Part shown: one piece after another, positions 14,601 to 58,770 of the stretch
Numbering within the stretch: position 1 is the stretch's first letter
Layout: every line of letters starts with the position of its first letter
Assembly (NCBI GenBank): GCA_963710365.1
Contig: CAVQAC010000015.1
Span: 496,125-560,124 of the forward strand
Length of the DNA stretch: 64,000 nucleotides
Direction of reading: 5' to 3'
Origin: an uncultured Planctomycetales bacterium
GTDB taxonomy: Bacteria; Planctomycetota; Planctomycetia; Pirellulales; PNKZ01
The notes under the pieces: generated by a model
Databases searched by the model: none
What the model was told of the DNA's origin: nothing
The model's input: only the letters and a program-made list of their open reading frames with translations
Position numbers and translations under genes: made by a program

Positions 14601-15229
14601 GCGTAAACATGGCCCACATGGACGTGAACATCTTTACCCGTATCGGATTCGTTGTGCTGGTGGGATTGGCGAGCAAGAACGCCATTCTGATCGTCGAGTT
14701 CGCCAAGCAGCGTCGACTGGCGGGCGCTTCGCGCCGCGAGGCGACGCTCGACGCCTGCCGGCTGCGTCTGCGCCCCATCATCATGACCAGCCTGGCCTTC
14801 ATCCTGGGCGTGGTCCCCTTGATTGTCTCACACGGCGCCGGCGCCGAGATGCGTAAAGCGCTGGGCGTGGCCGTGTTTAGCGGAATGCTCGGCGTCACGC
14901 TGTTCGGCCTGGCGCTGACCCCGGTGTTCTTCTCCACGATTGACTGGCTGGCCGAGGCGCGCCTGTTCAGTTCGTCGCGGCTGCGCCGCATGAGCGACCT
15001 CCTGCTGGCAGTGCTCAGCCTTCGTCCGCTGCGCCACTTCGGCACTAAGCGGCGGAGCAAGCCGGCGGTGGTCGTTGCATCCAAACCCGTTCCCCTGGAA
15101 CTGTTCGAGCACCTGCCCAAGGAGCGCCGCGAAGACGTTTCGCAGGAGCACGCTCCTCATGCGTCGACCCTCGCCCTGGGCGAGGGTCGCATCACGCTGG
15201 ACATCATTCGCCGTCCGGTTGAGAACTGA
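11658..15229 (+). CDS. RND multidrug efflux permease (AcrB/MdtB-like), copy 1, one frameshift near 12940
   Basis: GTG start gives '(M)ISRFFIDRPIFAAVLSIVITLAGG'. ORFs 11658..12986 and 12962..15229 align end to end with the paralog downstream. About 100 aa of C-terminal sequence lies after the last TM block. Confidence 0.9.
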
Positions 15230-18200: not shown

Positions 18201-18560
18201 GACGTGAACATCTTTACGCAAATTGGTTTCGTCGTGCTGATTGGACTGGCCTGCAAGAATGCAATTCTGATCGTCGAATTCGCCAAGGCGCATCGCGAGA
18301 GCGGCGTGGCCCGTCGCGAGGCGACGCTGGAAGCCTGCCAATTGCGATTGCGGCCGATCGTGATGACATCGCTGGCATTCATTCTGGGGGTGGTGCCGCT
18401 GATGATTTCCGAGGGAGCTGGCGCCGAGATGCGTCGCACGCTCGGCACCGCCGTCTTCGGCGGCATGTTGGGCGTGACGTTGTTCGGCATTTTTCTGACG
18501 CCTGTGTTCTACTATGTCATCCAGTGGTTCGCTGATCGCCGAGAGTCCGGTGGCGGCTAA
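15238..18560 (+). CDS. RND multidrug efflux permease (AcrB/MdtC-like), copy 2, one frameshift near 17358
   Basis: TTG start gives '(M)FSRFFINRPIFASVLSIIITLSGG'. ORFs 15238..17424 and 17373..18560 join as '...DDFHHRAKSD/LTGDVVAAKLQAGLE...'. Confidence 0.9.
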
Positions 18561-33112: not shown

Positions 33113-35624
33113 TTAAGATTCGCTCAGAATCCGCATCCCATAGAACGAGCGATGCACAAAGAACATGGAGATGAGCAGGAAGGTCACCGCCAAGGCAGTG
33201 GTCACACCGGCCCCTTCCTTTTCTGTAAGCGTGACGGCCAACGGCACGGCCAACAGGCCAAAGAGTGTGGTGAACTTGATGATCGGGTTCAGCGCGACCG
33301 ACGAGGTGTCTTTGAACGGATCGCCCACCGTGTCACCCACGACGCAGGCGTCGTGCAGATCGGTGCCCTTGGCCTTGAGTTCGGTCTCGACGATCTTCTT
33401 GGCGTTGTCCCACGCGCCGCCTGCATTGGCCATGAAGATTGCCTGATACAGTCCAAACAGCGCGATCGACACCAGGTATCCGATGAAGAAGTAAGGTTCA
33501 AGAAATGCGAAGCCCAGCGTCGAGAAGAACACAGTCATGAAGATATTGAACATCCCCTTCTGCGCATACTTCGTACAGATCTCGACCACCATCTTGCTGT
33601 CTTCTTTCGAGGCCGTGCGTACGGAGTCATCCAGCCTGATGTGGTCCTTGATGAACTCGGCCGCCCGGTACGCTCCGGTCGTGACGGCCTGGATGGAAGC
33701 GCCGGTGAACCAATAAATAACCGCTCCGCCGGCAATCAGGCCCAATAGAAACGGCGGATACAGGATCGAAAGGTGGGCCTCGAGTGCGGGCTCCAGTCCG
33801 TTGGTGAGCTCCAGGACGATCGAGAAGATCATGGTCGTCGATCCGACCACCGCAGTCCCAATCAGCACGGGCTTGGCCGTGGCTTTGAATGTGTTGCCGG
33901 CACCGTCGTTGGTCTCCAGGTTGTACTTGGCCAACTCAAAGTCGGGCACGAAACCAAATTCCCTCTCAAGATCCCGTTCGATGTTCGGTATGGTCTCAAT
34001 GGTGGACAGCTCGTAAACGCTCTGAGCATTATCAGTCACTGGACCATAGCTATCCACGGCGATGGTCACCGGCCCCATGCCGAGAAATCCGAACGCCACC
34101 AGTCCGAACGCGAATACGGACGGCGCGAGCATCATCTGCTCGTCGATTGTGGTGCTGATCTGATATGCCACGGCCATGAGGCCCAGGATGATCATTCCCA
34201 GCCAATAGGCGCTGAAGTTACCGGCCACCAGGCCGCTGAGGATATTCAACGAAGCTCCGCCCTTTTTGGACGACGTAACCACTTCCTGAACATGCGCACT
34301 GCTGGTGGACGTGAAAAGAGTGACGACTTCCGGGATGATCGCTCCGGCCAGTGTGCCGCAGCTGATAATTGCCGAGAGTTTCCACCACAGCGAGCTATCA
34401 CCGCCCAGCGTCGGGATCAGGGCGACCGATACCGCATAAGTGAGCAATACGGAAACGATGGACGTGATCCAAACTAGCACCGTTAATGGTGACTCAAAAT
34501 CAAAATGCCGGGCATCCTTGTACCTGGCCTTTGCCAGGGCATCGTTAATGAAATAGGAGCCGATGGACGCCACGACCATCATCACGCGCATCATGAAAAT
34601 CCATACCAGCAGCTGGATTTGCACCTGCGGTTCTTTGACGGCCAGCAGGATGAACGTGATGAGCGCCACGCCGGTAACGCCATAAGTCTCGAATCCGTCA
34701 GCCGAAGGGCCGACTGAGTCGCCAGCGTTGTCTCCTGTGCAGTCGGCAATTACGCCGGGATTGCGGGGATCGTCTTCCTTGATCTTGAAGACAATCTTCA
34801 TCAGATCCGCGCCGATGTCGGCAATTTTGGTAAAAATTCCGCCCGCGACGCGCAAGGCCGCGGCGCCCAGCGATTCACCGATGGCAAAGCCGATGAAGCA
34901 AGGGCCGGAATAGTCTCCCGGAATGAACATCAGGATGATGAGCATGAGCAGCAACTCGACACTGATGAGCAGCGCACCAATGCTGATGCCCGCTTTTAGC
35001 GGGATTGCATAGCACGGAAAGGCCTTGCCTTTCAAGCTGGCGAATGCCGTTCGCGAATTGGCGAAAGTATTAACGCGGATGCCGAACCAGGCCACGCCGT
35101 AGCTCCCCAGAATGCCGATTACGCTGAACAGCAAGATGATGCTTACCTTGGGCCAATCGAATTCCTGCAGATACTTGAAATAGAAGACAATGATGCTGCC
35201 GATGAAGATCCACAGCAGAAACAGGAACTTGCCCTGAGTGATCAGATACGTCTTGCAGGTTTCGTAGATGAGATCAGATACGTCTCGCATCGAGGAATGG
35301 ACGGGCAGGTTCTTGAGCTGCGCAGATCACCAAACCGAACACCAGCCCAAGGGTGGAAACGACCAGTCCCGCAAACAGCAGATCTCGGCCGCCGATCTGA
35401 TCGCCCAGGAACTTGGCGGCATTCAGATCGGGCAACTTCAAATTGGCTTCATTGCCTCCATGGTGCTGCGTCTCGGCGGCAATGGCTGGCTCGGCCAATG
35501 CGACGAGGAATAAAAGCGCGAACGCACCCTGGAAACAGGCTGCTAGCAAGGATCGCGGGATTCCAAGCGGGAATGACTTATGCGGGTTTCTCTGTCGCCG
35601 TTGAAAACGGTAGCACAAGCACAT
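33113..35624 (-). CDS. hppA: Membrane-bound proton/sodium-translocating pyrophosphatase, one frameshift near 35315
   Basis: 'DNAGDSVGPSADGFETY', 'AGGAWDNAKK' and 'GDTVGDPFKDTSSVALNPIIKF' are present. The N-terminal 'GLVFGLVI' + 'SAQLKNLPVHSSMRDVSDLIYETCKTYL' junction requires a 1-nt correction. The exact start is uncertain. Confidence 0.9.
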
Positions 35625-36090
35625 GCGACGATAGTCCTCTGGTAATCGGAAACGGTACCGCAGGGATCAAGGGATAGGCGATAAAGACTATCTGTCCAGC
35701 CGCTATGACGCAACCGCTCCTTGCGACGCCGGCCTGCCTTGATGCTCTAAGCGACCGGTGTTCAAATCGACCTGAAACGCTTGAAACCTGCTCGTTTTAT
35801 GGCCGAGTGTCAACACGACCGCCAGGGCCTGGTGCGCCGCCGGCCAGACGGTGACGAACATTAGACTCGCAGGGCACCCGCTTTCGGTGTCCCGACCCGG
35901 ATCGCGAACCAGGCCCTGGATCTTCGGAGGATCCCACGCTATCCGCTATACCATTCGTGCATCGTTGGTATCAGGGTCGGCAATTGGAATAGTGCCGGCT
36001 GGTTTACGAAAGCCGCAAATGACATGCGGTTGCCCGCTCTGGACACGTGACGTATTCTGATTGGGCGTCCGAGTCCGTGAGGGAGCGATT

Positions 36091-36411
36091 ATGCCAACAC
36101 CCGTGACGGTCAACATCAGCCACAACCTGGGCAAGGCGGAAGCCCGTCGCCGTATCGAGGATGGATTCGGCTCGATCCAGCAATCCATGTCCGGCGGGTT
36201 GATGGGGATGCTGTCCTTTCAAAAGCGATGGGAGAATGACCGGCTTCATTTTGAAGGCGGCGCTCTCGGCCAGAAAATGTCCGGGTCGCTCGAGGTGTTG
36301 GAAAACTCGGTGCAAATCCAGATCAATCTTCCGGACCTGCTCGCTTCAATCGCCGACCGGATGAAAGGATCGCTGCAGAAGCAGACGCAACGGCTGTTGG
36401 AGAAGAAATAG
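36091..36411 (+). CDS. Polyhydroxyalkanoic-acid-system-family small protein
   Basis: GAGGGAG precedes the ATG at 36091. 'VTVNISHNLGKAEARRRIEDGF...RLHFEGGALGQKMSGSLEVLENSVQIQINLPDLL' resembles the PHA_gran_rgn family layout. Confidence 0.6.
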   Translation: MPTPVTVNISHNLGKAEARRRIEDGFGSIQQSMSGGLMGMLSFQKRWENDRLHFEGGALGQKMSGSLEVLENSVQIQINLPDLLASIADRMKGSLQKQTQRLLEKK

Positions 36412-36523
36412 CCAGTACCTGTCGAGTAGCAATCCGAGCAATTTCATCGCTTGCGATTGTTGCTTTCTCAATGACCGCCTACTCTGACCGGTTCGTCGCA
36501 CACTCAGATCAATGGAGTATAAC

Positions 36524-36814
36524 ATGGCGAAGAAGAATCTTAATGGTCGAAAGTCGAACGGTGCAGCAGGGATTGCAGTCATCGAAGACCCGGCTGAACT
36601 GAATCAGGCTCCCGAAACCGCGGGCCGCGCAACTCACGAGGGCGAAACGACCCACTCGAAACCGAAGAGGAAAGCTAAAGATAATCAACCGTCCCATGGC
36701 AGTTTTGGGGTCGGCGAGATTCGCAAAGCGGCTGTTTTCGCCAACTCGATCGGCGGGTTGGACAAGGCGATCGCCCTGCTCCAGATTCTGAAAGTAGCGA
36801 AGGAAGTGCAGTAA
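36524..36814 (+). CDS. Small hypothetical protein
   Basis: GGAG lies 6 nt upstream of the ATG at 36524. The N-half is charged and low-complexity, and the C-terminus 'VGEIRKAAVFANSIGGLDKAIALLQILKVAKEV' looks helical. No known family. Confidence 0.45.
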   Translation: MAKKNLNGRKSNGAAGIAVIEDPAELNQAPETAGRATHEGETTHSKPKRKAKDNQPSHGSFGVGEIRKAAVFANSIGGLDKAIALLQILKVAKEVQ

Positions 36815-36815
36815 G

Positions 36816-36838
36816 CGAGCAAATTAAAAGTTTGCTCG
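36816..36838 (+). terminator. Weak hairpin after the small ORF
   Basis: CGAGCAAA-TTAAAAG-TTTGCTCG (8-bp stem) starts 2 nt after the stop at 36814. Only an interrupted T tract follows. Confidence 0.3.
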
Positions 36839-36935
36839 ATCGTTATTGGCGGTCCGGCCCGCCGCCACCGGGATGGCAGAGACGGCGAGCAGCGTCGAAT
36901 TCCAATGTCGCCGCCCAATTCTTGTCGGACGAGTC

Positions 36936-39598
36936 TTATTTCGAGTGAAATGCCTCGCTCGCAACGAGTGCCTGAATTAACTCACGCAGAGCGAAGTCTT
37001 TCTCCCGCGATTGGTTGGCGATGCTGGCCGCGAGATCCTCATCGGCGAACCCGAAAGGTCTGCCGAGCGCATATTCGATGAGGGCTTCCGTAAACCCCCG
37101 CACAAAGGCATCCGACTTCGACGCGACAATGTCGCGCAGCTCGAAATAGTTTTTGAACGCCGGACCGTTGTGGAATGCGGCGGCCGGATCGACGGGCCAG
37201 GTCTTTTTCACCCCGCCCATGCGCTCATAGGTGTCCTCCGTGCGCCACTTGCCCGCTGCGTCGAAGTTTTCCAGGCCAAAGCCGATGGGGTCGATTTTGC
37301 GATGGCAGTTCGCGCATTGCGGCTCTTCTTGATGTGCTCGCATCCGCTCGCGCACGTTCAGCACCTTGCCTTCGAGCCGCGCAAGCTGCGGGCACATTGG
37401 GCGGCGCGGGCGGCGGCGGGTCGTGGAGCAGTTTGCGCAGCACCCACGCGCCGCGCTCGACCGGGCTGGTGTATTGGCCGTTGCCCCCCATCGCGAGGAT
37501 CGCCGCCATGCCGAGCAGTCCGCCACGCGGCGAGCCGGCGGGCAGCGACACTTTGCGGAACGCATCGCCGCTCACGCCATCGAGTCCGTAGTAACTGGCG
37601 AGCAAGCCGTTGATGACCACGAAATCGGACTTTAACAAGCGGCGCAGGCTGAAGGTTCTCGCGCAGCAGGCAGGACATGGTTTGATAAACTTCTTCGCGA
37701 GCGGCGGCCTTGGTGCTGTCGTCGAAGCCGCGATGGAGCCGGAAGTCGAACTGGAAGAAATCCAGCCGATCCATGCCGAGCCACTGATGCGTGAAGCCGG
37801 AGGCAAATTGCCGCGACTTGTCGTCAGCGATCATGCGATCCACTTGCGCGGCGAGCACGGCGGGGTTTTGCAAGGCATCGCTGCGAGCGAGGGCGAGCAG
37901 TTCGTCGTCCGGCGGCCCGCTCCACAGAAAATAAGAAAGGCGACTGGCAAGTTCGAAACTATTGAGCCGGCGATGCCCTCGCTCGGTCGACGGCTCGCGC
38001 AGATAAAGGAAGCCCGGTGAGGCCAGGACAACGCTGAGCGGCTCTTTCAACGCTTCTTCGAACGAGTCTCCCCTGCTGCGGCGGGTCTCGAACAGCGACA
38101 TCGAGCCGGTCGAGATAATCAGCGCGATGGCTGCACGCCGCGAAAGGCACGCGTGGCAAAACGCTCGATTGCGCGCATGCGCTCCGGCGCGATCCTGCGT
38201 GGAGACGGCAGAGCAAGGCAACCGTCGGCACGTTGCGAGGTCGCAGGCCCCTCGATTTCCAGCCAGTCAATCCACACGGCCGGCACCGGGCCGTGACCGG
38301 TTTTCTCAAACTCGTCGTGGTAGCTGCGGATCTCCGCCGTGCGCGAATTCGGGCGTTTCTCTCGCACGGCAAACTCACGCTTGCCGCTGGTGCCCACTTC
38401 CACGGGCAGCTCGATGATTTGTGGCTCGCGCTAAGGTGCCGGTCACCTGATGCGCACTAAGCACGGTGAAGTCGCTCACGTCGTCGCCGCGCTGGCCGAC
38501 CTCGACAAAGCGTCGCTCGCTCGGCGCGGCGTCGTTGGCGGCCACGCGCATGCGCAAGATATAGCGACCGGCCGGCCACTGTGCTCGCCCGCCGAGACGT
38601 AGGTCTCACGATACGCCTGGTAAAAGAGCAGCCAGGCGCCGGTTTCGCGGTTCGGCAGCCGTTGATAGTCGGCGTAATAGCTGAAAAGTCCTTGTATTGC
38701 ATTCTCGTCGAAGAAGGCGGCCTGCGCGTCCTTGAAGCCGAACTCCGTCGGCGATGGTGCGCCGCTTGATCTGATCCCAGTCAAGATAGAACAGCAGCGG
38801 CGTCGCATAGGGAATGCCGGACGACGGGCGCGGCTTCTCGGCTTTCTTCCGCAATTGCTCGGCGATCTTCAGGTTCTCCGGGCGCTTCGCCGCTTCATCG
38901 ACCTCGGCCGTCCAGCGTACGTAGTTGTCGTGACATCTCCTTGTCCTGCTCGAACAGGCCGTTCATTCGTCTTGTTGCCGACAACCTCTGCTTCCGTGCG
39001 TGCCTTGAACGGTTGCTGCTGGCCGGCCGAGACGCGGGCAAAATGGTCGTCCAGCGCATGACGACCAAGCGCAAGGTACTGCTCGATCTGATCGCTCGAC
39101 ATGAACAGCGACGCACCGACCGTATCGAACGTGCCGGTGCCGCCGTCGGTCGGCAAATCGCGCACGTCGATCTCGACGCCGAGCAGATCGCGGATGGTAT
39201 TCCGGTATTCGCGTTGATTGAGTCGTCGCAGAGTGATGCGGCCTCCCTGGTCGCCGATGATCTTCCGCGCCGTCGCACAGCGTCTGCGACAGCGCGTCGA
39301 GGAATTCCGTTTTCCGTCCGCGATCAGGCTGCTTCGCGTCCTCGGGAGGCATTTCGCCGGAGTTGAGCTGGTTCAGAATCTTCTGCCAGCGGTCCGCCTC
39401 CTCGACGGACTTGATGACAAACGAAATCGTCATCCAGTCGCAGCTTGCCTTCTTGTTTCTCGGCGCCGTGGCACTGCGAAGCAGTAGTCTTTGAAGAACG
39501 CTCGCTGCGTTTCGTCGAGACGTGCCTGCGCCGGCTCCGCAGCCTGTGCCTGCGACGAGACAGAGGAAAACCAATGCGATCAGCAAGGACACTCTCAT
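36936..39598 (-). pseudogene. DUF1592-group multidomain protein with CxxCH N-terminus (copy 1), at least 13 frame changes
   Basis: Blocks can be traced across frames: 'MRVSLLIALVFLCLVAGTGC', 'FFKDYCF/QCHGAEKQEGKLRLDD', 'NQLNSGEMPPEDA', 'RRLNQREYRNTIRDLLGVE', 'SFELASRLSYFLWSGPPDDELL', 'GGLLGMAAILAMGGNGQYTSPVERGAWVLRKLL' and '[25 protein letters not shown]'. The ATG overlaps the upstream stop (ATGA at 39595-39598). Confidence 0.8.
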
Positions 39599-40891
39599 GC
39601 CCGCAGCTCCTTCACCACGCCAGTGCTGTCGCCATGACGTTCCGCTTCGATGCCGAGGCCGTGCAAGACTGTCAGCCAGGCATTGCACAGCGGCGTGCTC
39701 CGCGGCAACACGAGGTGCTGGCCAAGCTTGAGGCCCGCGCCCCGCCCTGCGAAAATCATCGGGCAGTTGTCGAGGTAATGGACCGTGCGAATGTTGCTGC
39801 CGTAGGCCAGCACCGTATGGTCGAGTAGCGAAGCTGCCGTCGGGCTCCTTGGTCGCTTTGAGCTTATCGAGCAGCCCGGCGAGCAACTCGCTCTGCGCCA
39901 CATCGCGACGCTGCGAAGCCTCGAGACGCTCGCCCGTCGTGTAATGGGTCATGTCGTGTGCGGCGATCTTCAGGCCGAGACTTCCCAGCAGCGTTCCCAC
40001 CGGTTGCCGATAAGTAATGACCCGCGTGGTGTCGGTCTGGAGCGCGACGACGATCAGGTCATACATGAGCTCGATCTCGTCGCGACCGGCGAGGCCAGGT
40101 TTCGGCTCGGTCAGCGAAGACTTCGCCTTTGGAATGGGGAGCCATTGCTCGTCCTTGGCGAGACGGGTCTCGATGTCGCGGACGCTTTGAAAGTATTCGT
40201 CGAGTTTGTCGGTGTCGGCTTTGTTGAGGCCGCGTTGCACACGTCGGGCATCGGCCAGCACGGCATCGAGCACGCTGCGCTTTTGCGCGAGCATGGCCTG
40301 CCGCTGAGCCAGCGGCACCGTCTCGTCGGAGAACAGGCGATGATAGGCGACCAGGGGATTCTCCATGCCCGCAAGCGGCTTGCCGCCGCGCGTCCCAGGC
40401 CAGCGAGAGGCCCGGGCCATGTCCGTTCGCCACGCCATCCGGGCTGCTCAACTGAATCGAGGCGAACCGCGTATCGGTCCCAAGTCGTTCGGCGACGACC
40501 TGATCGGCTGAGATGCTATTGTGAAAGCTCTGGCCTGGCTCCGCATAGCGGTTCGCCCCGGTGAGCCAGAACGTGCTGCCCCAGTGGGCTTCGTTGGCAA
40601 ACTTATTGGTGAGCCCCTGCACTACGGTGAAGTCCGCTTTGTGCCGCGCGAGCGGCGCCAGCCCTGGCGGAAGCGTGTAATCCGGCCCAGTCACTTTCGC
40701 GTCGGGCATCCACGTTTCCTCGCGTCACTCCCCAGCCAAAGCCCAGGAAGACGGCCCGCTTGGGCCGCGCTGCGGTGGTTGGCGGCAGCCGACGCAAAGC
40801 GACGGAAGCCGATGGATTCCAGCGCCGGCAGCGCGAGGATGCTGCCCGCCGCGCAGAGCAAATGGCGTCGACTAAGGCGGTTGGTTTTCAT
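39595..40891 (-). pseudogene. DUF1552-family Tat-signal protein (copy 1), at least 4 frame changes
   Basis: 'MKTNRLSRRHLLCAAGSILALPALE', 'PKRAVFLGFGWGVT', 'FTVVQGLTNK', '[11 protein letters not shown]' and 'LLDHTVLAYGSN' lie in different frames. The HxxSHH position reads 'HDMTHY'. Confidence 0.8.
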
Positions 40892-41596
40892 GAGGATCTG
40901 ATCCTTGGGTTCGCGCGCCGTACCGCGCCATAGTTGAATCCCGGTAGGGCTCGGTCACGCCCTTCCATGGAAGGCCGGATCACTTGCTGAACCGCGGTAT
41001 GGCGGAAAAATCAGGGTAGCACAGGGCGCGACGGCGGTGGGGGCTATTTCGCCGCGGCCACCCTGCGTGATTTCAACGGCAGGCGGGGGAATCTCTACCG
41101 TTGATTGTAGCTGGAATGGCTTGAGGAGGAAAGCATTTGCGCCAGCCGACCAGGGAGTCTGAAGACTGAGACGATGCCAGTCCCGTGACCAGCTGGGGCC
41201 ACCGGGTACACCGATCTCCGACGCGAGTTTTTACGGTGGCTGCCATCGGTAGCAGAGGTACGCATTCTGCGTCAGTCGCGTCGATCAAAGACTCGGCGCT
41301 GTTGCAATTCTTGACCAGAGAATCCATCGTCGGGCCCTCGTTTTGAGCGGTTCCATCAATGCCATGTGGAAATCTCATGCCTTGGATGGGGAGAGTCGGC
41401 CCGACCCGCCGTCTTGGCTGAATCGGCAGGACCTCCTGGGCGTGATCCACCCGGGAGTGTGCCAAGCAATCGGTTCCAAACTGATTCGCATCGCGGGATC
41501 GTAGGAGGTAAGATAGCTAATCCGTAGCGTTGCCAGGAATCCTCGGCTAATGCTTTCGCAACTCGTTGATCCCTCCACCCATTGATTTTGATTACC

Positions 41597-42856
41597 ATGC
41601 GACTTGTCTGCTCCGCTTTGATTGGCATCGCGGCTTTGATCTGTGGGCCGGGGACTTCCCGGTCGGCCGACACGAACTGGCCACAGTTCCGCGGTCCGCT
41701 AGGTAATGGCCAATCGTCGGCCAAGGGCCTGCCACTGAAATGGAACGAGACCGAGAACGTCCGCTGGAAAGCTCCGATCCACGGCAAGGGCTGGTCGTCG
41801 CCGGTTGTTTGGGACCGGCAGATTTGGCTCACGACCGCCACCGAAGACGGCAAGCAACGGTTTGCCGTGTGCGTCGATGCCGAATCGGGCCGGGTCGTGC
41901 ATGACATCGTGGTCATCAACGATCCCGATCCGCAGTTCTGCCACCCGATGAACAGCTACGCTTCGCCGACGCCGGTCATCGAAGCCGGTCGCGTCTATTT
42001 GCACTTTGGCAGCGCGGGAACGCTTTGTCTCGACACGCAGACGGCCAAGACGCTGTGGATGCGGCAGGATCTGCCCTGCAACCATTATCGTGGCGCGGCC
42101 TCGTCGCCGATTCTGTTCGAGAATCTTTTGATCGTGTCCTACGACGGTTATGACCAACAGTATGTAGTGGCCTTCGATAAGCAAACCGGCAAAACCGTTT
42201 GGAAGCGTGACCGGGCCATCACGACCTACAAAAGCGACGACGGCGACACCAAGAAGGCATATGGCACCTGCTCCGTGTTCGACGTGGCGGGTCGATTGCA
42301 GTTGATTGCGCCCAGCGCCGAGGCGACGATGGCTTATGATCCGCGCACGGGCAAAGAACTGTGGCGCGTGCGTCATGGCGGCATGAACGCTTCGGCTCGG
42401 CCACTTTTCGGCGACGGCCGGTTGATCCTCAATACCGGCGCCGGCGGTTTGAAGCTCTTGGCCGTTGACCCGCAGGGGGAGGGAGACATTACCGACACGA
42501 ACATCGTCTGGAAATATGCCAAGACCGTTCCCACGCGCTCGTCGCAGTTGCTAATCGGCGGCTTGTTGTTCATGGTCAATGATTCCGGAATCGCGTCCTG
42601 TCTCGATGCCGAAAAGGCGAAACAAAACTGGCAGGAGCGTTTCGGGGGCGACTATTCGGCCTCGCCCATCTACGCCGACGGGCGAATCTACTTTTTCTGC
42701 CAGGATGGCCGCACGCCGGTCGTCGAGCCGAGCGCCACGTTCAAGCTGCTGGCCGAGAACAAACTAGGCGATGGTTACATGGCTTCGCCAGCCGTCACGG
42801 GCAAGGCGTTCATCCTCCGCTCGCGTTCACACCTTTATCGCGTGGAGAGCCATTAG
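41597..42856 (+). CDS. PQQ-like beta-propeller repeat protein, secreted
   Basis: Signal 'MRLVCSALIGIAALICGPG' followed by 'NWPQFRGPLGNGQS...WKAPIHGKGWSSPVVWDRQIWLTTA', typical of planctomycete PQQ-like propeller proteins. Confidence 0.8.
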   Translation: MRLVCSALIGIAALICGPGTSRSADTNWPQFRGPLGNGQSSAKGLPLKWNETENVRWKAPIHGKGWSSPVVWDRQIWLTTATEDGKQRFAVCVDAESGRVVHDIVVINDPDPQFCHPMNSYASPTPVIEAGRVYLHFGSAGTLCLDTQTAKTLWMRQDLPCNHYRGAASSPILFENLLIVSYDGYDQQYVVAFDKQTGKTVWKRDRAITTYKSDDGDTKKAYGTCSVFDVAGRLQLIAPSAEATMAYDPRTGKELWRVRHGGMNASARPLFGDGRLILNTGAGGLKLLAVDPQGEGDITDTNIVWKYAKTVPTRSSQLLIGGLLFMVNDSGIASCLDAEKAKQNWQERFGGDYSASPIYADGRIYFFCQDGRTPVVEPSATFKLLAENKLGDGYMASPAVTGKAFILRSRSHLYRVESH

Positions 42857-49719: not shown

Positions 49720-52095
49720 ATGAACCTGAGTAATCCTTCCGTTCGAATCGATATGACACCTTTGTTTTCAAAAAATCTTGGCATTGGATTGGCCCTTTTG
49801 TGCTGCTGGGTTCAGGCTGTCGCGGCGGCGGAATCGGTCGATTTCGAGCGACAGGTTCTTCCGCTGCTCTATAACCGCTGTTTCAGTTGTCACAGCGAGA
49901 AGCAGGCCAAGCCGAAGGCCGATCTGCGGCTCGATTCGGCCGAGGGAATTCACAGCAGCGGAGTCCTGGATGTCGAGCATCCAGACGAGAGCGAATTGCT
50001 GATTCGCGTTTCACTGCCGCATTCGGACGAAGGATTGATGCCCCCCTTGAAAGGCGGCGGTCAACCGTTGAGCGACTCGGAACGAACGCTGCTTCGTCGT
50101 TGGATTGCCGACGGAGCGAAATTGGGCGCCTGGCGGCGTTTCGACCATCGCCAACCGGCGGTCGAGTACCGTGGCGATCCTCGCACGCGCGCCGATGTGC
50201 CGAAGTTGGCCCGTCGCGTGGATGAGCTGGTCGAGCAGTATCACCACTCTCACGGTTCCGCGTTGAATCCTGGCGTGAGTGATGAAGGCTTCTTGCGGCG
50301 CGTCTACCTCGACGTGGCTGGTCGGATTCCGAGTTTGGCTGAAACGCGGCAGTTTCTCGACAGCAACTCTTCTGACAAACGCGCCCGGCTGATCGATCGC
50401 TTGCTCGACAGCGAAGCCTACGTCAGTCACACCTTCAATTGGAAGGCGGATCAACTGCGGCTCGTTACCAAGGGATTTCCCGGCCAGCCCGGATATATGT
50501 ACGACGACTGGGTGAAGCAGTCGATACGCTCTGGCATGCCGTACGACGAATTTGTCCGCCGCCTGGTCAGCGCCCGTGGGCAGCTCTGGGAAAACGGAGC
50601 CGTGGGTTTTTATCTTCGTGATCTGGGCATGCCGTTGGATCATATGTCGAACATGGCGCGGATTTTCCTGGGTACACGGATTGAATGTGCTCAGTGCCAC
50701 GATCATCCGTTCGAGCCGATCACGCAAAAGGATTTCTATCAGCTCTCGGCCTATACGTTCGGAGTCTCGAATCTCTACACCTCCGTGGGGTTCTCCACCG
50801 ACAACGTGAAGCACTGGGGTGAACTCGTGGCGAAGTTGGATGCGATGAACGCTCCCAAGGCGCTGCGAGACTCCGTAAGCCAGACGGTCGCTCCGCTCAA
50901 GCGACTAACGAAAGACACCGAGCATCGACTGACGTTTCCAGATCACTATATGACGGATGCAGCAGACCGCGGAAAGCAAGTCGAGTTTCGCACGCTCTTC
51001 GGCGACGAAGCTCCGGCCACGGTCGAGAACCGCCGCGTCGTGCTGGCCAACTGGATGACGTCGCCGCGCAACCCGCGCTTTGTCCGCAATATCGCCAATC
51101 GATTGTCCAAACGCGTGCTGGGCGTGGGGCTGATCGAACCGGTCGACAGTCTATCGCCCGTCAATCGACCGGAGCAACCCGAACTACTCGATTTCCTTTC
51201 ACAGTCAATGGCGGAGCTTCGCTTCGATGAACGGGCCTTTCTCGCGGTTCTGCTCAACTCCCGGCTGTATCAAAGCGAAGCGGAGCGGAAGCAGCTAGAG
51301 CCGGGCGAAATGTACTCGCTGCGTGGTCCGCTGGTGCGGCGTCTTTCCGCCGAGCAGCTGTGGGATTCGCTGCTTGTCCTGCTGGTCGAAGATCTCGACG
51401 CGCGTAAGCCGCTGCCCCCCGACCGCGGCCCACTAGGCCGCGAACAGTTGGACAAACTGACCCATATGACGGCCGACGAACTGATGGAGCGCGCAAAAGT
51501 GATGATGGATTACCATGTCGCGCGACGCCGTCACAACATCGACCTGGAGAATCAAAAGGCCGCGTTGAAACTTGCCAAGGAAGCAGGCAACATTGCAGAG
51601 GTTCGCCGACTGCAAGAGGAGTACGCCAAGGCGAACGAACCGTTCGAGCAACTCCATCAGGCGCTACAGATGGGCGGACCTTCGACAGTCCACGAAACCG
51701 ATCCGCGTTGGGTGCGGATTTCTCCGGCGTTCGTGCGCGCTTCGGAATTCCCCACTCCGATTGCGACGGGACATTTTCTTCGGCAGTTCGGGCAGTCGGA
51801 CCGTCGCGAGATCGATGCCTTCAACAAGAATCCCAACATCACCCACGCGCTGGCGCTCATGAACGGGGAGCTGACGCAAAAGGCACTCGAAGCGGGATCG
51901 TACCTGCGGACCAGCTTACGTCCGGCGAAGACCGACGACGAGCGGGTGGAAGCCATCTACCAATCGATCCTCGTTCGCAATCCCACGGCCGACGAAACCA
52001 GCCAGTGCCTGGAATTATTTCCGGCCAGCCACAATCCGGAAGCGGATCTCATCTGGGCGCTGCTCAACACGCCCGAATTCCTCTTCATCCAATAG
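49720..52095 (+). CDS. PSCyt/DUF1549/DUF1553-type protein with CxxCH motif
   Basis: Intact 791-aa ORF. A signal peptide is followed by 'LLYNRCFSCHSEKQAKPKADLRLD'. 'FLRRVYLDVAGRIPSLAE', 'CAQCHDHPFEP' and the C-terminal 'DLIWALLNTPEFLFIQ' are present. Confidence 0.9.
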   Translation: MNLSNPSVRIDMTPLFSKNLGIGLALLCCWVQAVAAAESVDFERQVLPLLYNRCFSCHSEKQAKPKADLRLDSAEGIHSSGVLDVEHPDESELLIRVSLPHSDEGLMPPLKGGGQPLSDSERTLLRRWIADGAKLGAWRRFDHRQPAVEYRGDPRTRADVPKLARRVDELVEQYHHSHGSALNPGVSDEGFLRRVYLDVAGRIPSLAETRQFLDSNSSDKRARLIDRLLDSEAYVSHTFNWKADQLRLVTKGFPGQPGYMYDDWVKQSIRSGMPYDEFVRRLVSARGQLWENGAVGFYLRDLGMPLDHMSNMARIFLGTRIECAQCHDHPFEPITQKDFYQLSAYTFGVSNLYTSVGFSTDNVKHWGELVAKLDAMNAPKALRDSVSQTVAPLKRLTKDTEHRLTFPDHYMTDAADRGKQVEFRTLFGDEAPATVENRRVVLANWMTSPRNPRFVRNIANRLSKRVLGVGLIEPVDSLSPVNRPEQPELLDFLSQSMAELRFDERAFLAVLLNSRLYQSEAERKQLEPGEMYSLRGPLVRRLSAEQLWDSLLVLLVEDLDARKPLPPDRGPLGREQLDKLTHMTADELMERAKVMMDYHVARRRHNIDLENQKAALKLAKEAGNIAEVRRLQEEYAKANEPFEQLHQALQMGGPSTVHETDPRWVRISPAFVRASEFPTPIATGHFLRQFGQSDRREIDAFNKNPNITHALALMNGELTQKALEAGSYLRTSLRPAKTDDERVEAIYQSILVRNPTADETSQCLELFPASHNPEADLIWALLNTPEFLFIQ

Positions 52096-52106
52096 GATCG
52101 CGCCCG

Positions 52107-53381
52107 ATGCGAACCATGCAGACCGAAATCTCACGTCGCCGTTGGATCGAGGCCTTTGCCAGCGCGTGCTGCGGCGTCAGCTTGTTGGGATGGCCCCCGG
52201 CAGCGTTGGCGGACTCGCGCCGGCGGCCGAAGGCCCAGAGTGTCGTCTATCTTTACCTGCGCGGCGGGATCTCGCACGTCGATACCTTTGATCCCAAGCC
52301 AGGCAAGCCCGAGATGGCCGGCGTGCAGGCGATCGGCACCAGCGCCGCGGGCGTGCAAATCTCAGAATGGTTTCCGCAAACCGCGAGGCAAATGCACCAT
52401 ATCTCGTTGGTTCGCTCGATGACCTCGACACAAGGTGTTCACGAGCGGGGCAATTACTTGGCACACACCAGTTATTACCAAACGCCGACGATCGCGCATC
52501 CGGCGCTCGGCGCTTGGGCCTTGAAGCAATTGGGGTCGACCAATCCCCTGCTGCCCGGGAACATCCTCATCAATGGCAGCCCTCAGCATCCCGGCAGCGG
52601 TTACATGGAGTCGCATTTGGCGCCGCTGCCGATCGTTGATCCTGCCGCCGGGTTGCAGAACTCCGCGTTCAGTCGCGACACCACGGAGATCGATTTCGTT
52701 CGCCGCTCGCAACTCGTTCAGTCGCTAGGAACCCGTTTTCTTGCCCGCACGCCCCATCGTTCGGCCGCGGCCTACGACAAGATTCGTGCCAAGGCCGTCG
52801 AGCTGATGAAGAGTCCGGATTTGCGGGCCTTCGACATCAGTCAGGAGAGCCCAAAAACGCAGGAGGCTTACGGAACGCATACTTTTGGCCAGGGGTGTTT
52901 GCTGGCGCGACGACTCATCGAGCACGGCGTGCGGTTCATCGAGGTTGAAGACGATCAGAACTGGGATACCCACAACGACCAACTCGTCTCCATGCAGCGC
53001 ATGACGCCCTCGGTCGATCAGACGTTTGCGGCGCTCCTCGACGATCTTCACCAGCGCGGGCTGCTGGACTCAACGCTGGTCGTGATGGCCACCGAGTTCG
53101 GTCGGACGCCGCAGATCAGCGAAGTCACTGCCGGCCGCGGGCATCATCCCGCCGTGTTCACCTGGTGGGTCGCCGGCGGAGGCATGAAGGGGGGCTATGT
53201 TTACGGCAAGTCCGACGCCACCGGTGAACGAGTTGCCGACCGCCCCGTGAACATGCCCGACTTCAACGCCACGATCGCCCAGGCACTGGGGATCGATTTG
53301 GAGAAAGTCGAGCATTCTCCCTCCGGGCGTCCGTTCACGATAGCCGACAAAGGTCGGCCCCTTGCTGATCTGTTCGCATAA
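52107..53381 (+). CDS. DUF1501-family protein (sulfatase-like fold), Tat signal
   Basis: ATG at 52107, 11 nt after the upstream stop. 'ISRRRWIEAFASAC' is a Tat-type leader. 'VVYLYLRGGISHVDTFDPKP', 'WDTHND' and 'VVMATEFGRTP' are present. Confidence 0.9.
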   Translation: MRTMQTEISRRRWIEAFASACCGVSLLGWPPAALADSRRRPKAQSVVYLYLRGGISHVDTFDPKPGKPEMAGVQAIGTSAAGVQISEWFPQTARQMHHISLVRSMTSTQGVHERGNYLAHTSYYQTPTIAHPALGAWALKQLGSTNPLLPGNILINGSPQHPGSGYMESHLAPLPIVDPAAGLQNSAFSRDTTEIDFVRRSQLVQSLGTRFLARTPHRSAAAYDKIRAKAVELMKSPDLRAFDISQESPKTQEAYGTHTFGQGCLLARRLIEHGVRFIEVEDDQNWDTHNDQLVSMQRMTPSVDQTFAALLDDLHQRGLLDSTLVVMATEFGRTPQISEVTAGRGHHPAVFTWWVAGGGMKGGYVYGKSDATGERVADRPVNMPDFNATIAQALGIDLEKVEHSPSGRPFTIADKGRPLADLFA

Positions 53382-53466: not shown

Positions 53467-54717
53467 CTAATGCGGCTTTGCCTGCGGGGGCGGGGTGTCG
53501 CGATCGGCCACCGGTTTGGGGCCGACGTGGAAAATCCGAGTGTCGTTAGGCCAGAGCTCCAATTCGCGCGGGCGCGGCGGCGGGTTCCAGTCTCGCAGCG
53601 CGAGCAGGATCGTTCTTCCACCGCGAAAGCCTTCGAGCATCTCGTAAAGATGCATCCGTATTTCGACGCCGCTGTGGCCCGGCGGCGGGGCCTCGATTCG
53701 CGTGACGCTACTCACCGTGCCCGAGACAGAACCGTCCCATCCGCGCAGGCTGGGTTCGGCCGCCCAGATCGTGACCAAGGTATTGGCCTTGAAGGCATCG
53801 ACCAGTTCCGCTTCGATTCCGGCGGGAAAGGCGAACGTGACGTAACCGCGAGCACCCGCTCCAGGCATCGACTCGGTTTTGAGGACGATGGCGGGCAGAC
53901 CGCTACGTTTCAACTGGGCGATGTGGATCTGCCGCTGCTGCTCGGTCGCGACTCTGCGGCTCGCCGCGTCAATCCAGATTTCGCGGCACAGGCCGTCTTC
54001 CTTGGTAGAGCCCAACAGCGTGGCCCAGGTGAGATTGAGCTGAACGATCTGTCCTTGGGCGAGATCCTCGACCGAGGCAATCTCGCGGCCTTTCCAAATC
54101 CGCACGCCGCGGTCGAGTCGCAGCGTTTGCGTGGCCTCGACGCCGTCGTCGGTGTCTGTCACCGCGGCGCCATCGGTCAACTCGACGCGCTCGAAGGTGA
54201 CGGTGGCCTTGTCGGCTCCAAACGCGGCCAGTTTCCAGCCTTCGCCGCGCCGCTGGTGATAACTGAAGTCGTCCTCAAAACGGAGCACGCGCGAGTATTG
54301 CGAAACCACGGAGCGGAGATCAGGCGCGGCCATTCTGCTGGCGAAGTATCCGCTCTCGGGCGGCACAACCTTGAAATCGCCCTCGGGGCCGAGGTAGAAG
54401 ATGCCGTGCAGATGCGTGCCCAGCGGGAGGTCGCCCAACTCAACTCCAGCGCCGTGGTAGGTGATGTCCGCATAGGGCAGCATTTGAAAATGGTGTGGCA
54501 AATCCCAGTAGTATTTGTTGATTGTGCCATCGCGGTCCGGGCGCAGGATGCCGCGGCGATTCACGTGCTCGACGAGGATCAGCTCGCCTGCGAATCGTTT
54601 ACCCGCATTTGCCACCGGAAACACACCGTCGAGCGCGATGCGCCCGTCCGTCGGATCTGCCGCGTGCAATGGCGGGCTGGCAGCGATGAGCAAGGCGATC
54701 AAAAGCAGGATGCGCAT
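53467..54717 (-). CDS. Secreted hypothetical protein, third gene of the DUF1592-DUF1552 operon
   Basis: ATG at 54717 lies 4 nt after the DUF1552 stop. The signal is 'MRILLLIALLIAASPPLHA'. 416 aa, no recognised family. Confidence 0.65.
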   Translation of the reverse strand: MRILLLIALLIAASPPLHAADPTDGRIALDGVFPVANAGKRFAGELILVEHVNRRGILRPDRDGTINKYYWDLPHHFQMLPYADITYHGAGVELGDLPLGTHLHGIFYLGPEGDFKVVPPESGYFASRMAAPDLRSVVSQYSRVLRFEDDFSYHQRRGEGWKLAAFGADKATVTFERVELTDGAAVTDTDDGVEATQTLRLDRGVRIWKGREIASVEDLAQGQIVQLNLTWATLLGSTKEDGLCREIWIDAASRRVATEQQRQIHIAQLKRSGLPAIVLKTESMPGAGARGYVTFAFPAGIEAELVDAFKANTLVTIWAAEPSLRGWDGSVSGTVSSVTRIEAPPPGHSGVEIRMHLYEMLEGFRGGRTILLALRDWNPPPRPRELELWPNDTRIFHVGPKPVADRDTPPPQAKPH

Positions 54718-54721
54718 GGGC

Positions 54722-56092
54722 CTAACCCTCCAATTGCGAGATCGTCTGTAAGCTGTCGGCAAATGCGGGCGTTTCCACGTCCATCTTCTGCGCGAGAGTG
54801 AGCAGCAGGTTGCTGAAGCGTGCCCGGTCGTTCACGGGCGCGAGCAGATCTGGTAATGCGAGGTCTTCAGCGCTCCCTGTTCGTCGAGGGCGTAACCGTC
54901 GAAATGTCCCGCGTTGAAGTCGATGTGACTGCCATGTTTCAAGCCGAGCGCGCGGCCACCGGCCACGACGGTGGGGAGATTCGCATTGCCGTGACTGTGG
55001 CCGTAGGCCATGCCGCTGCCGTAGAGAGCCACGGTCAGGTCCAGCAGCGGTGTGTCGCCATCGTGCGTTTCGGCCAGGCGATCGAGGAAGTAGGCGAAGT
55101 GCTCGAAGTTGAAGGCATCGCTCTGCGTGAGGCGGTCCAACTGGTCGGGGTCGCCGTTGTGATGCGAGAGGGCGTGCCGGGTCTGGTTGATGCCGAGTTC
55201 GGGAATCGGCAGGCCTTTGCCTTCGTCGCCCGAACTGAATGTGATCACGCGGGTGGTGTCGGTTTGCAAGGCCAGGATCATCAGGTCGTAGAAAGTGCTG
55301 AAGTAATCGCTGGGTTTGGTTTGCGGAACGTCGCGCGTCAGGTGGCGGCGGACGGCGTCCGGCACTTGAGGACGCGGCACGTCGAGCCAACCATCGGCAC
55401 GTTCAGTTCGGATTTCCACCTCGCGGACCGAGGTGAGGTATTGATCCAGCCTGCCGCGATCTTCGCTGCCGATCTTGCGATCCAGCGCCTCGCGCTTCGC
55501 CGAGTACCGCGTCGAGCACGCTGCCGCGCCGACGCAGCGTCTCGCGCTCCTTGCCCACGCCGCCGTCCGGCGCTTCGAACAGACGGCGAAACACGTCGCG
55601 TGGCTTGGTCTCGGCAGGCAGGCCGATGCCACCGGCGGTGAAGGCAAGCGACCGGCCCGTGTCGCTCAGCTCCAACGAGGCAAAGCGAGTGTGCGCCGCC
55701 AGCTTTCCGGCGATCAATTGGTCCAGGCTGATGCTGTTGCGTTTTCCCTGGCCAATCTCGGCCCCGGTCAGCCAGATGCTCTGGCAGTCGTGATGATGCC
55801 CGAGCCCATTGGGATGATGCAGCCCCGAGATCGGCGTGATGTTGGCGCGATGTCGCTCGAGTGGTTTCAGCCCGCGGCTGAAGCGATAGTCTGGCCCGGC
55901 GTCCAGGATCTGATAGTCGAGCGTGTTCACACCGTTGGGTAGATAGACGAACACGCTGCGCTTGGCCTTCGGCGCAGCCGGCGCGGCCAACAATGGACGC
56001 ATGCAATTCAGCATGGGAAGGGCGATGGAGACACCCAGGCCGCGCAGCACGTGGCGCCGACTCAGCAGCCAGGATTGCTTAAGAACGTTCAT
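54722..56092 (-). CDS. DUF1552-family Tat-signal protein (copy 2), two frameshifts (~55500, ~54875)
   Basis: '[20 protein letters not shown]', '[11 protein letters not shown]', '[11 protein letters not shown]', '[11 protein letters not shown]' (HxxSHH) and '[12 protein letters not shown]' are spread over ORFs 55403..56092, 54832..55647 and 54722..55390. Confidence 0.85.
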
Positions 56093-56133
56093 GGTTTTTC
56101 AGCTCGTGCGCTCGATGGCTGGCAAGGGGTGGG

Positions 56134-58576
56134 TTAACGTCTTCGGAACAACTCTGAGGCGACGAAGGCATCGATGAGGTCACGCAGTCGGTAGCCGTGG
56201 TCGCGGGTTTGCCGAACGATCAAGTTGATGGCTGCTTCGTCTTCCAGGGTTATCGACCGTCGCAAGGCATACACGGCAAGCTTGCCCGTGAAGGCGCGAG
56301 CAAAGACTTCCGGCTTCGCCGCGAGCAATCGCTTGAAATCAGCGGCATCGGCAAAGCGGCGCCCGTCGGGAAGCTGGCCGCTGGCATCGACGGGTGGGTT
56401 GGCGCCTTTGCCTGCCAGGACAACTTCTTCCGTGCGCCAGCGGCCGATGGCGTCGTAGTTGTCGAAAGCCAGGCCCAGTGGATCGATCTTGGCATGGCAG
56501 GCAGCGCAATTCGCGTTGGCTTTGTGTGCGGCCAGCTTCTGGCGAATCGTAGCCTTGGGTTCGTTCACGGGGTTCGGCTCAATCGCGCTGACATTCGGCG
56601 GTGGCGGCGGAGGCGTCTTGCCAAAGACCGTTTGCGAGACCCACACCCCGCGATGCACGGGCCGGTGCCGCGTTCCGTCGGAAGTCAACGACAGCACGGA
56701 CGCCTGCGTGAGAATGCCTCCCCGATGCTCCTGGGGCTGCAGGACGACGCGCTCAAAGCCGCCACTGGCCGGCGGTTCTAGTCCATAGTGCAGCGCCAGT
56801 CGCGGATTGAGCATAGTCCAATCCGATTCGAGGAATTCGACCAGCGGAAGGTTTTTGCGGAACATTTCGGCGAAGTAATGCGTGGTCTCGAGGACCATGC
56901 TCTGCTCCAGCCAGTCGTCGTAGTCGGGGTAGAGTTTCGGATCCGGCGGAAAAGCTCCGACTCTCTTTAACTGCAACCATTGCCGCGGAAAGGATTCAGT
57001 AAACCTCGCGATCTTCGGATCGGCCAGCATGCGCGCGGCCTCGGCTCGCAGACCCTCGCGATCGTGCAATCTGTCATCCATCGCGGCGGCCAACAGATTC
57101 TCGTCTGGGCCGGAGCTCCACAGAAAAAACGACAGGCGCGAGGCCAATTCTTGATCATTCAACAGCGTGCGATTTTCGCCCGGCGAACCTTCCGCAATGT
57201 AGGCGAAATTCTTCGAGGCGAGCAGGCCCACCAGGGCAGTCCTGTACGCCACGCGAAAGGATGACTCGCGCCGCCAGTTCGCGCGAGACGATCGTCGCAT
57301 AAGGGCGGATTTCTTCCTCGGTGACGGGTCGGCGCCAGGCGCGCTGGGCGAAGCGCGTGAGGCAGGCCAGCACGTCCTCGGTACTCGCGTTGTCGGCGGG
57401 AAACAAGCCTGAGCGCTTACGCACGTCGTCCGGTTTCTCCAGCGGCCCTTGCCAGTCGATCCAATCGAAGATAAGCAACGGATAGAGCGGCCGGCCTTCG
57501 TCGTCGGTCATCTTGCGCTGCCAGGGCGCGCGGGATTTCGGATCGTTGAGTGTGGTGAACACAAAACCGCCCGGCCGGCCCGAGCGCGGCGCGTTCGAGG
57601 GGCCGGGTACCGCGTTGTTGATCGCGATGTCGAACTTGCCGGCCGGCAAAAATGTCTCGAACTCCAACACCACCGGCTTGTCCTCCGACGCGAGGACATC
57701 GGCCTCGAAGATCATGCGGTCCAATTCGGGAGAATACAGGCTGACGTGCGGCGACCGCCCGCCGGTCGGCCTCAGCCCGCTCAACTGCATCCTTGCCCGA
57801 TACAGCCCCGACGCCTGCCGGTAACCCGGATCGGGACGCAGGAAAGAAAGTTGCAGCCCGGGCCACATGAGCATGCGAATCCTGGGAGTGATGCCGATCC
57901 AATCCAGCTCTTTGCGTTTATCGCCATTCTGCCAGTCGATGGTCAGGGCATCGCGGTGGGTTTTGACTTGAAACGGCTTCGAGTCTGGAAATGCCTGATC
58001 GATAATCTCCGCGGCGGCTTTGAGGTATTGCTCGACGTGCGACGGCGACAGCGATAGTTCACTCCCCAGCCGCTCGATTCCCTGCCAATTCGGATCTTCC
58101 GCGAATGCACCGGGTGCGCGGGTGTCGTATCGCACGCCGAGGAGATCATACACGGCGTGCGAGTATTCTTCCCGGCTCAACCGGTAGTGGCTCACCGGCG
58201 CGCGTTTGGCCATGCGAGCGGCTTCGCCTTCCTTGATCCGCGCGGAGAGCCACTCCATCACTCGGCCAGACGCTTCGGCGGTGGGCTGCGGTTCATCTTC
58301 CGGTGGCATCTCTCCCGCGCCGATTCGCGTGATCACCTCGATCCAGCGCTCGGCCGCTGAACCGCCCGCGAAATCACGAGTCAGCGCATCCAGCCGCAGA
58401 TCTGCCTTGTGCTCGTCCGGGCCATGACAACGCAGGCAGTGCTTTCGCAAATAAGGCTCAACCGTTTCCGCAAACCCTGGCGACGCGTCCGCGGCAGCGA
58501 AGACTGTGCTCGTCAACGGGCAAGCGAGCACAAGGCTCAGCAGCACAATGGCTCGAATCAGCGGCATCGGATTCAT
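56134..58576 (-). CDS. DUF1592-group multidomain protein with CxxCH N-terminus (copy 2), one frameshift near 57270
   Basis: A signal peptide is followed by 'YLRKHCLRCHGPDEHKADLRLD'. 'GAGEMPPEDE', 'YRLSREEYSHAVYDLLGV', 'ELASRLSFFLWSSGPDENLL' and 'CAACHAKIDPLGLAFDNYDAIGRWR' are present. ORFs 57155..58576 and 56134..57300 join as 'SRELAA/ESSFRVAY'. Confidence 0.85.
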
Positions 58577-58770
58577 CTTCGAGGCGGGCGGCAGGCGGGC
58601 ACCGAGGGAAAGTGCATTTTAACTGGGCGTGCCGCCTCGGTATAGCGACGGTCAAGTCTCGAATTTGCTTGCTATCCGTACTGCCCGCGGATAGGCTTAG
58701 GTTCGCTCGCGCTTTCGGAAGACAAAGTGAATAGCACCCCGGCCCATCCGGGTGGCTCGTCAATGAGTAA

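Follow-up and report, generated by a model that had tools for sequence, protein, structure and literature searches.

Roughly 20 frame breaks interrupt a pair of genes in this assembly of an uncultured Planctomycetales bacterium. The deposited sequence truly contains them, but very probably as consensus insertion errors left by poor polishing and not as marks of gene decay. Neither gene should be labelled a pseudogene. The window analysed here is a stretch of 64,000 nucleotides; the minus strand of its positions 36936-40891 is without any long open reading frame and carries overlapping short fragments across all three frames. Judged from the frame-corrected sequence, the underlying pair is most likely an ordinary and functional one, in which a DUF1552 gene and a PSD-family gene are translationally coupled.

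Twenty frame breaks in a DUF1552 and PSD-family gene pair

Pfam matches and orthologue-guided translation located the two genes, and DNA alignment located the breaks within them. The features of the zone are as follows.

39595..40891, minus strand: DUF1552 (HXXSHH, PF07586) gene with a twin-arginine-type N-terminus, MKTNRLSRRHLL (Pfam and orthologue-guided translation)
~40776-40783, 40723, 40387 and 39832, minus strand: four single-base insertions in the DUF1552 gene (DNA alignment to relatives)
36936..39598, minus strand: PSD-family gene (DUF1595/DUF1592/DUF1588/DUF1585) with CxxCH motifs (Pfam and orthologue-guided translation)
Within the PSD-family gene, minus strand: 16 lasting frame changes, fifteen of +1 and one of +2 (DNA alignment), at the positions in the next two lines
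39560, 39476, 39429, 39277, 38971, ~38940, 38767, 38583 (+2) and 38427, minus strand: first nine breaks of the PSD-family gene
38229, 38208, 38174, 38124, 38101, ~37630 and 37393, minus strand: last seven breaks of the PSD-family gene
37393..40783, no strand assigned: minimum extent of the presumed error-rich patch, delimited by its outermost extra bases (alignment)
35291-41581, no strand assigned: maximum extent of the same patch, bounded by two unbroken neighbouring genes

With the extra bases removed, the DUF1552 gene is 430 codons long and the PSD-family gene ~880 codons. Fragments of the former match PF07586 (E 1.2e-40 and 2.8e-23), and fragments of the latter match PF07637, PF07631, PF07627 and PF07624 (DUF1595/1592/1588/1585). 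All five families scored above their curated cut-offs in the Pfam test and the full domain order is covered. The stop codon of the DUF1552 gene overlaps the ATG of the PSD-family gene as ATGA (39595-39598), and the same junction is found in the related genome G006. Neither flanking gene (33113-35290 and 41582-42856) has a break in its reading frame.

The orthologous locus was sought by DNA search in 40 related genomes, with G006 as the reference and G002 and G013 as further comparators. The G006 locus (L002) is ∼ 84-85% identical at the nucleotide level over the whole stretch, and its pair is intact, encoding a DUF1552 protein of 430 aa and a PSD-family protein of ∼ 880 aa. Gapped tblastn with the orthologue proteins crossed the shifts without resolving the frames, and global DNA alignment was used instead. 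This alignment of the window with G006 contains 54 indels (47 not multiples of 3), many of which lie close together at diverged places and cancel each other in pairs. Lasting changes were therefore counted through the running frame offset, discarding excursions of less than 15-30 nt. The two genes together have 20 lasting frame changes (4 + 16), of which 19 are +1 and one is +2; deletions number zero. The sequence-only reading had arrived at about 17 frame corrections, at least 4 in the DUF1552 gene and at least 13 in the DUF1592 gene, and so recognized the phenomenon correctly while undercounting it. The three breaks that it placed in the first ∼ 170 nt are those at 39560, 39476 and 39429 of the PSD-family gene, and its one indel per ∼ 230 nt compares with a measured density of ∼ 1 per 198 nt.

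Two closer, independently assembled comparators were available, a Logan contig (89% nucleotide identity) and a JGI metagenome contig (92%), neither of them from the same strain. Alignment with the orthologous locus of relatives, a check that the sequence-only reading had proposed, revealed that the extra bases are missing from three independent relatives (G006, the Logan contig and the JGI contig). The four extra bases of the DUF1552 gene are without counterpart in the loci L002, L036 and L037, and the PSD-family gene breaks from 39560 to 38427 are corroborated by L036. The 92% comparison aligned 1385 nt, in which five +1 insertions are the sole indels. No independent assembly of the same strain was found, the best matches in the protein collection being 93-95% identical; the DUF1552 reading is likewise 93-95% identical to intact proteins of 420-430 aa from independent assemblies.

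The broken copy has gained nothing except insertions

The guided translation of the DUF1552 gene is 88.6% identical to the 430-aa orthologue of G006, and that of the PSD-family gene is 84.6% identical to the 880-aa orthologue. There are no in-frame stops in the 1297 complete codons of the orthologue-guided frame. The impression gained from the letters, of family-typical peptides with no in-frame stop, was thus accurate (0 stops, 85-89% amino acid identity). The dN/dS values against G006 are 0.10 and 0.12 for the two genes, compared with 0.09-0.22 for an intact-versus-intact control (G002 or G013 against G006). An old pseudogene, for which uniform read support, dN/dS near 1 and overlooked nonsense codons had together been named as the signs, is contradicted by these values (0.10-0.12 against G006) and by the lack of stops. 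Because a pairwise dN/dS is blind to a recent event, a relative-rate test was run with G002 or G013 as the outgroup. It returned 227 window-specific and 225 G006-specific substitutions (p = 0.96), and the nonsynonymous fraction of the lineage-specific substitutions was 0.30 for the window against 0.36 for G006. Since there is neither an excess of substitutions nor a stop codon, the window copy has gained nothing except insertions.

These data bear on the possibility that the operon really has been inactivated, very recently and as a redundant copy, by ∼ 20 small insertions gathered in a living population. The broken stretch does coincide with one two-gene operon whose neighbours are both intact, and the presence of paralogous modules (copy 2 in the window and another at C17:600691-604441) could make this copy dispensable. 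However, bacterial pseudogenes have a deletion bias, and 20 of 20 changes here are insertions. A neutrally decaying gene is expected to collect extra substitutions that are mostly nonsynonymous, and deletions rather than insertions. If the usual substitution-to-indel ratios are assumed, neutral decay that lasted long enough for 20 indels should be accompanied by roughly two hundred substitutions and a number of stops. In the window copy there is no nonsense codon, the two lineages differ by two substitutions in their counts and the nonsynonymous fraction is not raised. Indeed, the same signature is seen in dnaE, rpoC and about 190 other clusters of the genome, as described below. Recent inactivation, which the sequence-only reading had put forward as one candidate, is therefore very unlikely.

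Nature of the extra bases

We analysed the 17 clean single-base insertions of the zone. The inserted bases include A, C, G and T, and all three codon positions are affected. Only 4 of the 17 equal a neighbouring base, and 12 of the 17 adjoin a third codon position, where 11.3 would be expected by chance. The contexts are heterogeneous, with no common motif, slippery or four-base, at the 17 sites, and no homopolymers or repeats were seen there. The few matches to neighbours, the chance-level codon positions and the missing motif together argue against homopolymer slippage and against slippery or four-base decoding.

The same observations weigh on the idea of a truly indel-prone or recoded locus, maintained by phase-variable repeats, programmed +1 frameshifting or four-base decoding. 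Such a locus would fit the fact that every change is in the + direction. It would hardly insert all four bases in unrelated contexts, with so few equal to their neighbours, at all codon positions and at sites that have neither a common motif nor repeats. Moreover, the events of this genome are patchy, run across gene borders and are piled at contig ends, unlike any decoding rule. We regard this explanation as practically negligible, and the indel-prone locus suggested from the letters loses its footing with the lack of repeats and homopolymers at the sites.

Extra bases could also result from a mis-assembly in which reads of two paralogous modules, or of two co-occurring strains, were merged into a mixed consensus. 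The genome has the look of a metagenome-type assembly, with 3.85% contamination, and at 40723 and 39832, where the relatives differ by a SNP, the window has both variants side by side. Paralogue merging is opposed by the lack of any blastn match between copy 2 and copy 1, and by the nearest paralogue in the genome, which is ∼ 70% identical. Identity to one orthologue is even (0.79-0.90 per 300 nt) and reveals no mosaic. A merger is highly improbable, and the mis-collapse of the two paralogous modules that had been considered before is rejected. A strain mixture may still have entered the consensus, and it would likewise be an artefact.

Strain SNPs written as tandem alleles were considered as a source of the insertions, as suggested by the two sites 40723 and 39832. 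A tandem-allele origin predicts adjacency to third codon positions, and the codon-position test (12 of 17 against 11.3 by chance) was unsupportive.

Frame switches in the rest of the window

Frame switches were called with a home-made detector, in which a codon-pair coding model trained on the genome is combined with a seven-state Viterbi path. An event is a direct same-strand frame switch with the old frame open for at least 18 nt. The detector under-resolves dense zones: of the 20 changes in the studied zone it reports 8. One control genome served to calibrate its false-positive rate. Nine events fall in the remaining 60 kb of the window, and at 7 of these 9 one Pfam domain alignment spans the junction. 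The domain-spanned frame switches, each seen by the detector and by Pfam, are listed below.

~10825: HlyD-type protein
~12934 and ~17341: two AcrB-type pumps
~19036: GFO/IDH/MocA oxidoreductase
~48184: sigma-70 factor
~55492 and ~57235: second DUF1552/PSD module (copy 2, 54.7-58.6 kb)

Outside the zone, background breaks occur at a rate of no less than 1 per ∼ 8.6 kb, and the ∼ 1 per ∼ 3.5 kb estimated by eye is compatible with this lower bound.

Dense patches throughout the genome

The assembly comprises 7.77 Mb in 27 contigs, with a completeness of 76.6% and a contamination of 3.85%. Genome-wide the detector found 4051 events, or 0.52 per kb. The control, 400 kb from a same-family genome in 5 contigs, gave 0.065-0.09 per kb, and none of its 4-kb segments exceeded 3 events. 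Up to 18 events fall in a single 4-kb segment of the studied genome, and about 100 separate regions have at least 8 events per 4 kb, whereas only a few would be expected under a Poisson distribution. Clusters of at least 5 events number 192 (median span 2.1 kb, maximum 7.2 kb) and contain 37% of the events within 5.8% of the genome. Stretches of 10 kb or more without any event are also over-represented, with 105 observed against 22 expected. The +1 type makes up 71% of the events in dense zones versus 57% of isolated ones. The studied zone, with 8 detector events in one cluster (37387-40387), belongs to the top ∼ 4% of 4-kb segments; it is far denser than the window background, yet one of many such zones in the genome.

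Event density was 0.92 per kb at less than 2 kb from a contig end, 0.78 at 2-5 kb and 0.65 at 5-10 kb, compared with ∼ 0.51 per kb in the contig interior. Because the density rises toward contig ends, the errors would seem to track consensus quality and not biology. The size of a contig did not predict its event density (Spearman -0.10).

GC content and event density were correlated (Spearman 0.38) in the output of a detector that sees coding DNA only and performs better at high GC. The GC content of the clusters was 0.637 versus 0.618 in their flanks, and the GC link is not relied upon here.

Essential genes carry the same pattern

One dense zone, C25:87060-91035, consists of 13 frame segments that when stitched together give the DNA polymerase III alpha subunit (dnaE), with its PHP, NTPase, finger, HhH and OB domains. 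This is the only replicative copy, the sole other homologue in the genome being 30-35% identical. Compared with the intact G006 orthologue, it has unpaired +1 insertions, no stops in the guided frame and 82% amino acid identity. The gene rpoC is divided among at least three frames, and further dense zones strike KdpB, an AcrB-type pump, glycogen phosphorylase, DUF1501 and others; some of the zones span gene borders. Since dnaE and rpoC cannot be pseudogenes, the occurrence of the same signature in both argues against real decay.

The extra bases might still be real in the DNA of the organism, either through an insertion-biased mutation process acting in patches of a few kb or because +1 shifts, including those in essential genes, are tolerated through a corrective mechanism acting on RNA or at the ribosome. 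We consider this extremely unlikely.

Proposed origin of the errors and consequences for annotation

We propose that the assembly is of the long-read type and that its consensus received poor or uneven polishing, which would leave scattered single-base indels over most of the genome. Some 6% of the genome would lie in patches of 1-7 kb with a much worse consensus, affected chiefly by single-base insertions, and the studied zone would be one such patch. The technical cause may be locally low coverage, or patches that the polisher skipped. An error profile dominated by insertions and poor in substitutions has been reported for PacBio continuous long reads. From the profile of the patches we infer that they are nearer to the PacBio continuous-long-read type than to the classic Nanopore type.

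The sequence-only reading had named a low-quality or collapsed stretch, an inactivated copy and, as less likely, an indel-prone locus, and had settled on none of them. Its locally low-quality stretch is the part that survives, on the strength of changes that are insertions only, the lack of stops and of excess substitutions, the involvement of dnaE, rpoC and ∼ 190 clusters, and the enrichment at contig ends; paralogue collapse is rejected, inactivation very unlikely and an indel-prone locus unsupported.

For annotation, thousands of other genes in this assembly should likewise not be called pseudogenes, and findings of 'decay', 'relic' or 'frameshift' from the same genome need equal caution. 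Claims about the gene content of the assembly first require frameshift-aware gene calling or re-polishing. Patchy, insertion-only errors are themselves a useful diagnostic for the assembly.

Comparison with known systems

Indel errors that break genes in long-read genome and metagenome assemblies are what proovframe (10.1101/2021.08.23.457338) sets out to correct, and they have been discussed for Nanopore MAGs (PMC9262707, PMC8103633). The present assembly resembles these cases in having thousands of frameshifts in conserved genes, essential ones included, in its low marker completeness despite large contiguous sequence, and in carrying no load of nonsense codons or substitutions. It departs from the classic Nanopore error, homopolymer deletion, in that its dense patches consist of insertions at non-homopolymer sites. 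The errors found here are also strongly clumped, in patches of 1-7 kb, instead of being distributed evenly.

As in decaying bacterial pseudogenes, the gene pair is untranslatable as written and has many frameshifts. Unlike such pseudogenes, it shows no stops, no raised dN/dS and no extra substitutions or deletions, and the pattern recurs in essential single-copy genes. The underlying pair is an ordinary example of the DUF1552 + PSD/PSCyt pairs of Planctomycetota and Verrucomicrobiota, with the complete domain order, the ATGA overlap and hundreds of intact 430-aa relatives. It differs from those other pairs solely by the extra bases in the assembly.

Frame changes in other genes of the window

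The codon-model detector, which calls same-strand switches of reading frame, was also followed through the window beyond the broken DUF1552 and PSD-family gene pair (copy 1).

Other genes of the window and their frame changes
11658-15229 (+), AcrB-type pump gene 1; one frame change at ~12934, -1 type
15238-18560 (+), AcrB-type pump gene 2, adjacent to gene 1; one frame change at ~17341, -1 type
~19036 (-), GFO/IDH/MocA oxidoreductase gene; single frame change
~35323 (-), N-terminus of an H+-pyrophosphatase gene; ambiguous detector event
~43603 (+), low-molecular-weight phosphatase gene; ambiguous detector event
~48184 (+), sigma-70-type factor gene; single frame change
49720-53381 (+), PSCyt1/PSCyt2/PSD1 gene, then DUF1501 gene; apparently unbroken
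~54700-58600 (-), second DUF1552 and PSD-family module (copy 2)

Upstream of the pump pair, an HlyD-type gene carries one frame change, at ~10825. In this gene and in both pump genes, the Pfam domain alignment spans the junction. Because the PSCyt1/PSCyt2/PSD1 and DUF1501 genes appear unbroken, a clean planctomycete-type gene module is possible within the window. Copy 2 has one frame change per gene (~55492 and ~57235), and no DNA similarity was detectable between it and copy 1.

Frame changes elsewhere in the genome

In three small contigs of the same genome (C13, C16 and C21; 26-39 kb), which may be low-depth contigs, the density of frame-switch events is ~1.35 per kb, or 2.6 times that of the genome on average; a kdpB on C16 is split into 12 frame segments. 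On contig C19, rpoC (1435795-1439894) occupies at least three reading frames. The sole replicative dnaE of the genome (contig C25, 87060-91035; locus L029) is divided into 13 frame segments, and its pattern is insertion-only and stop-free, as in copy 1.
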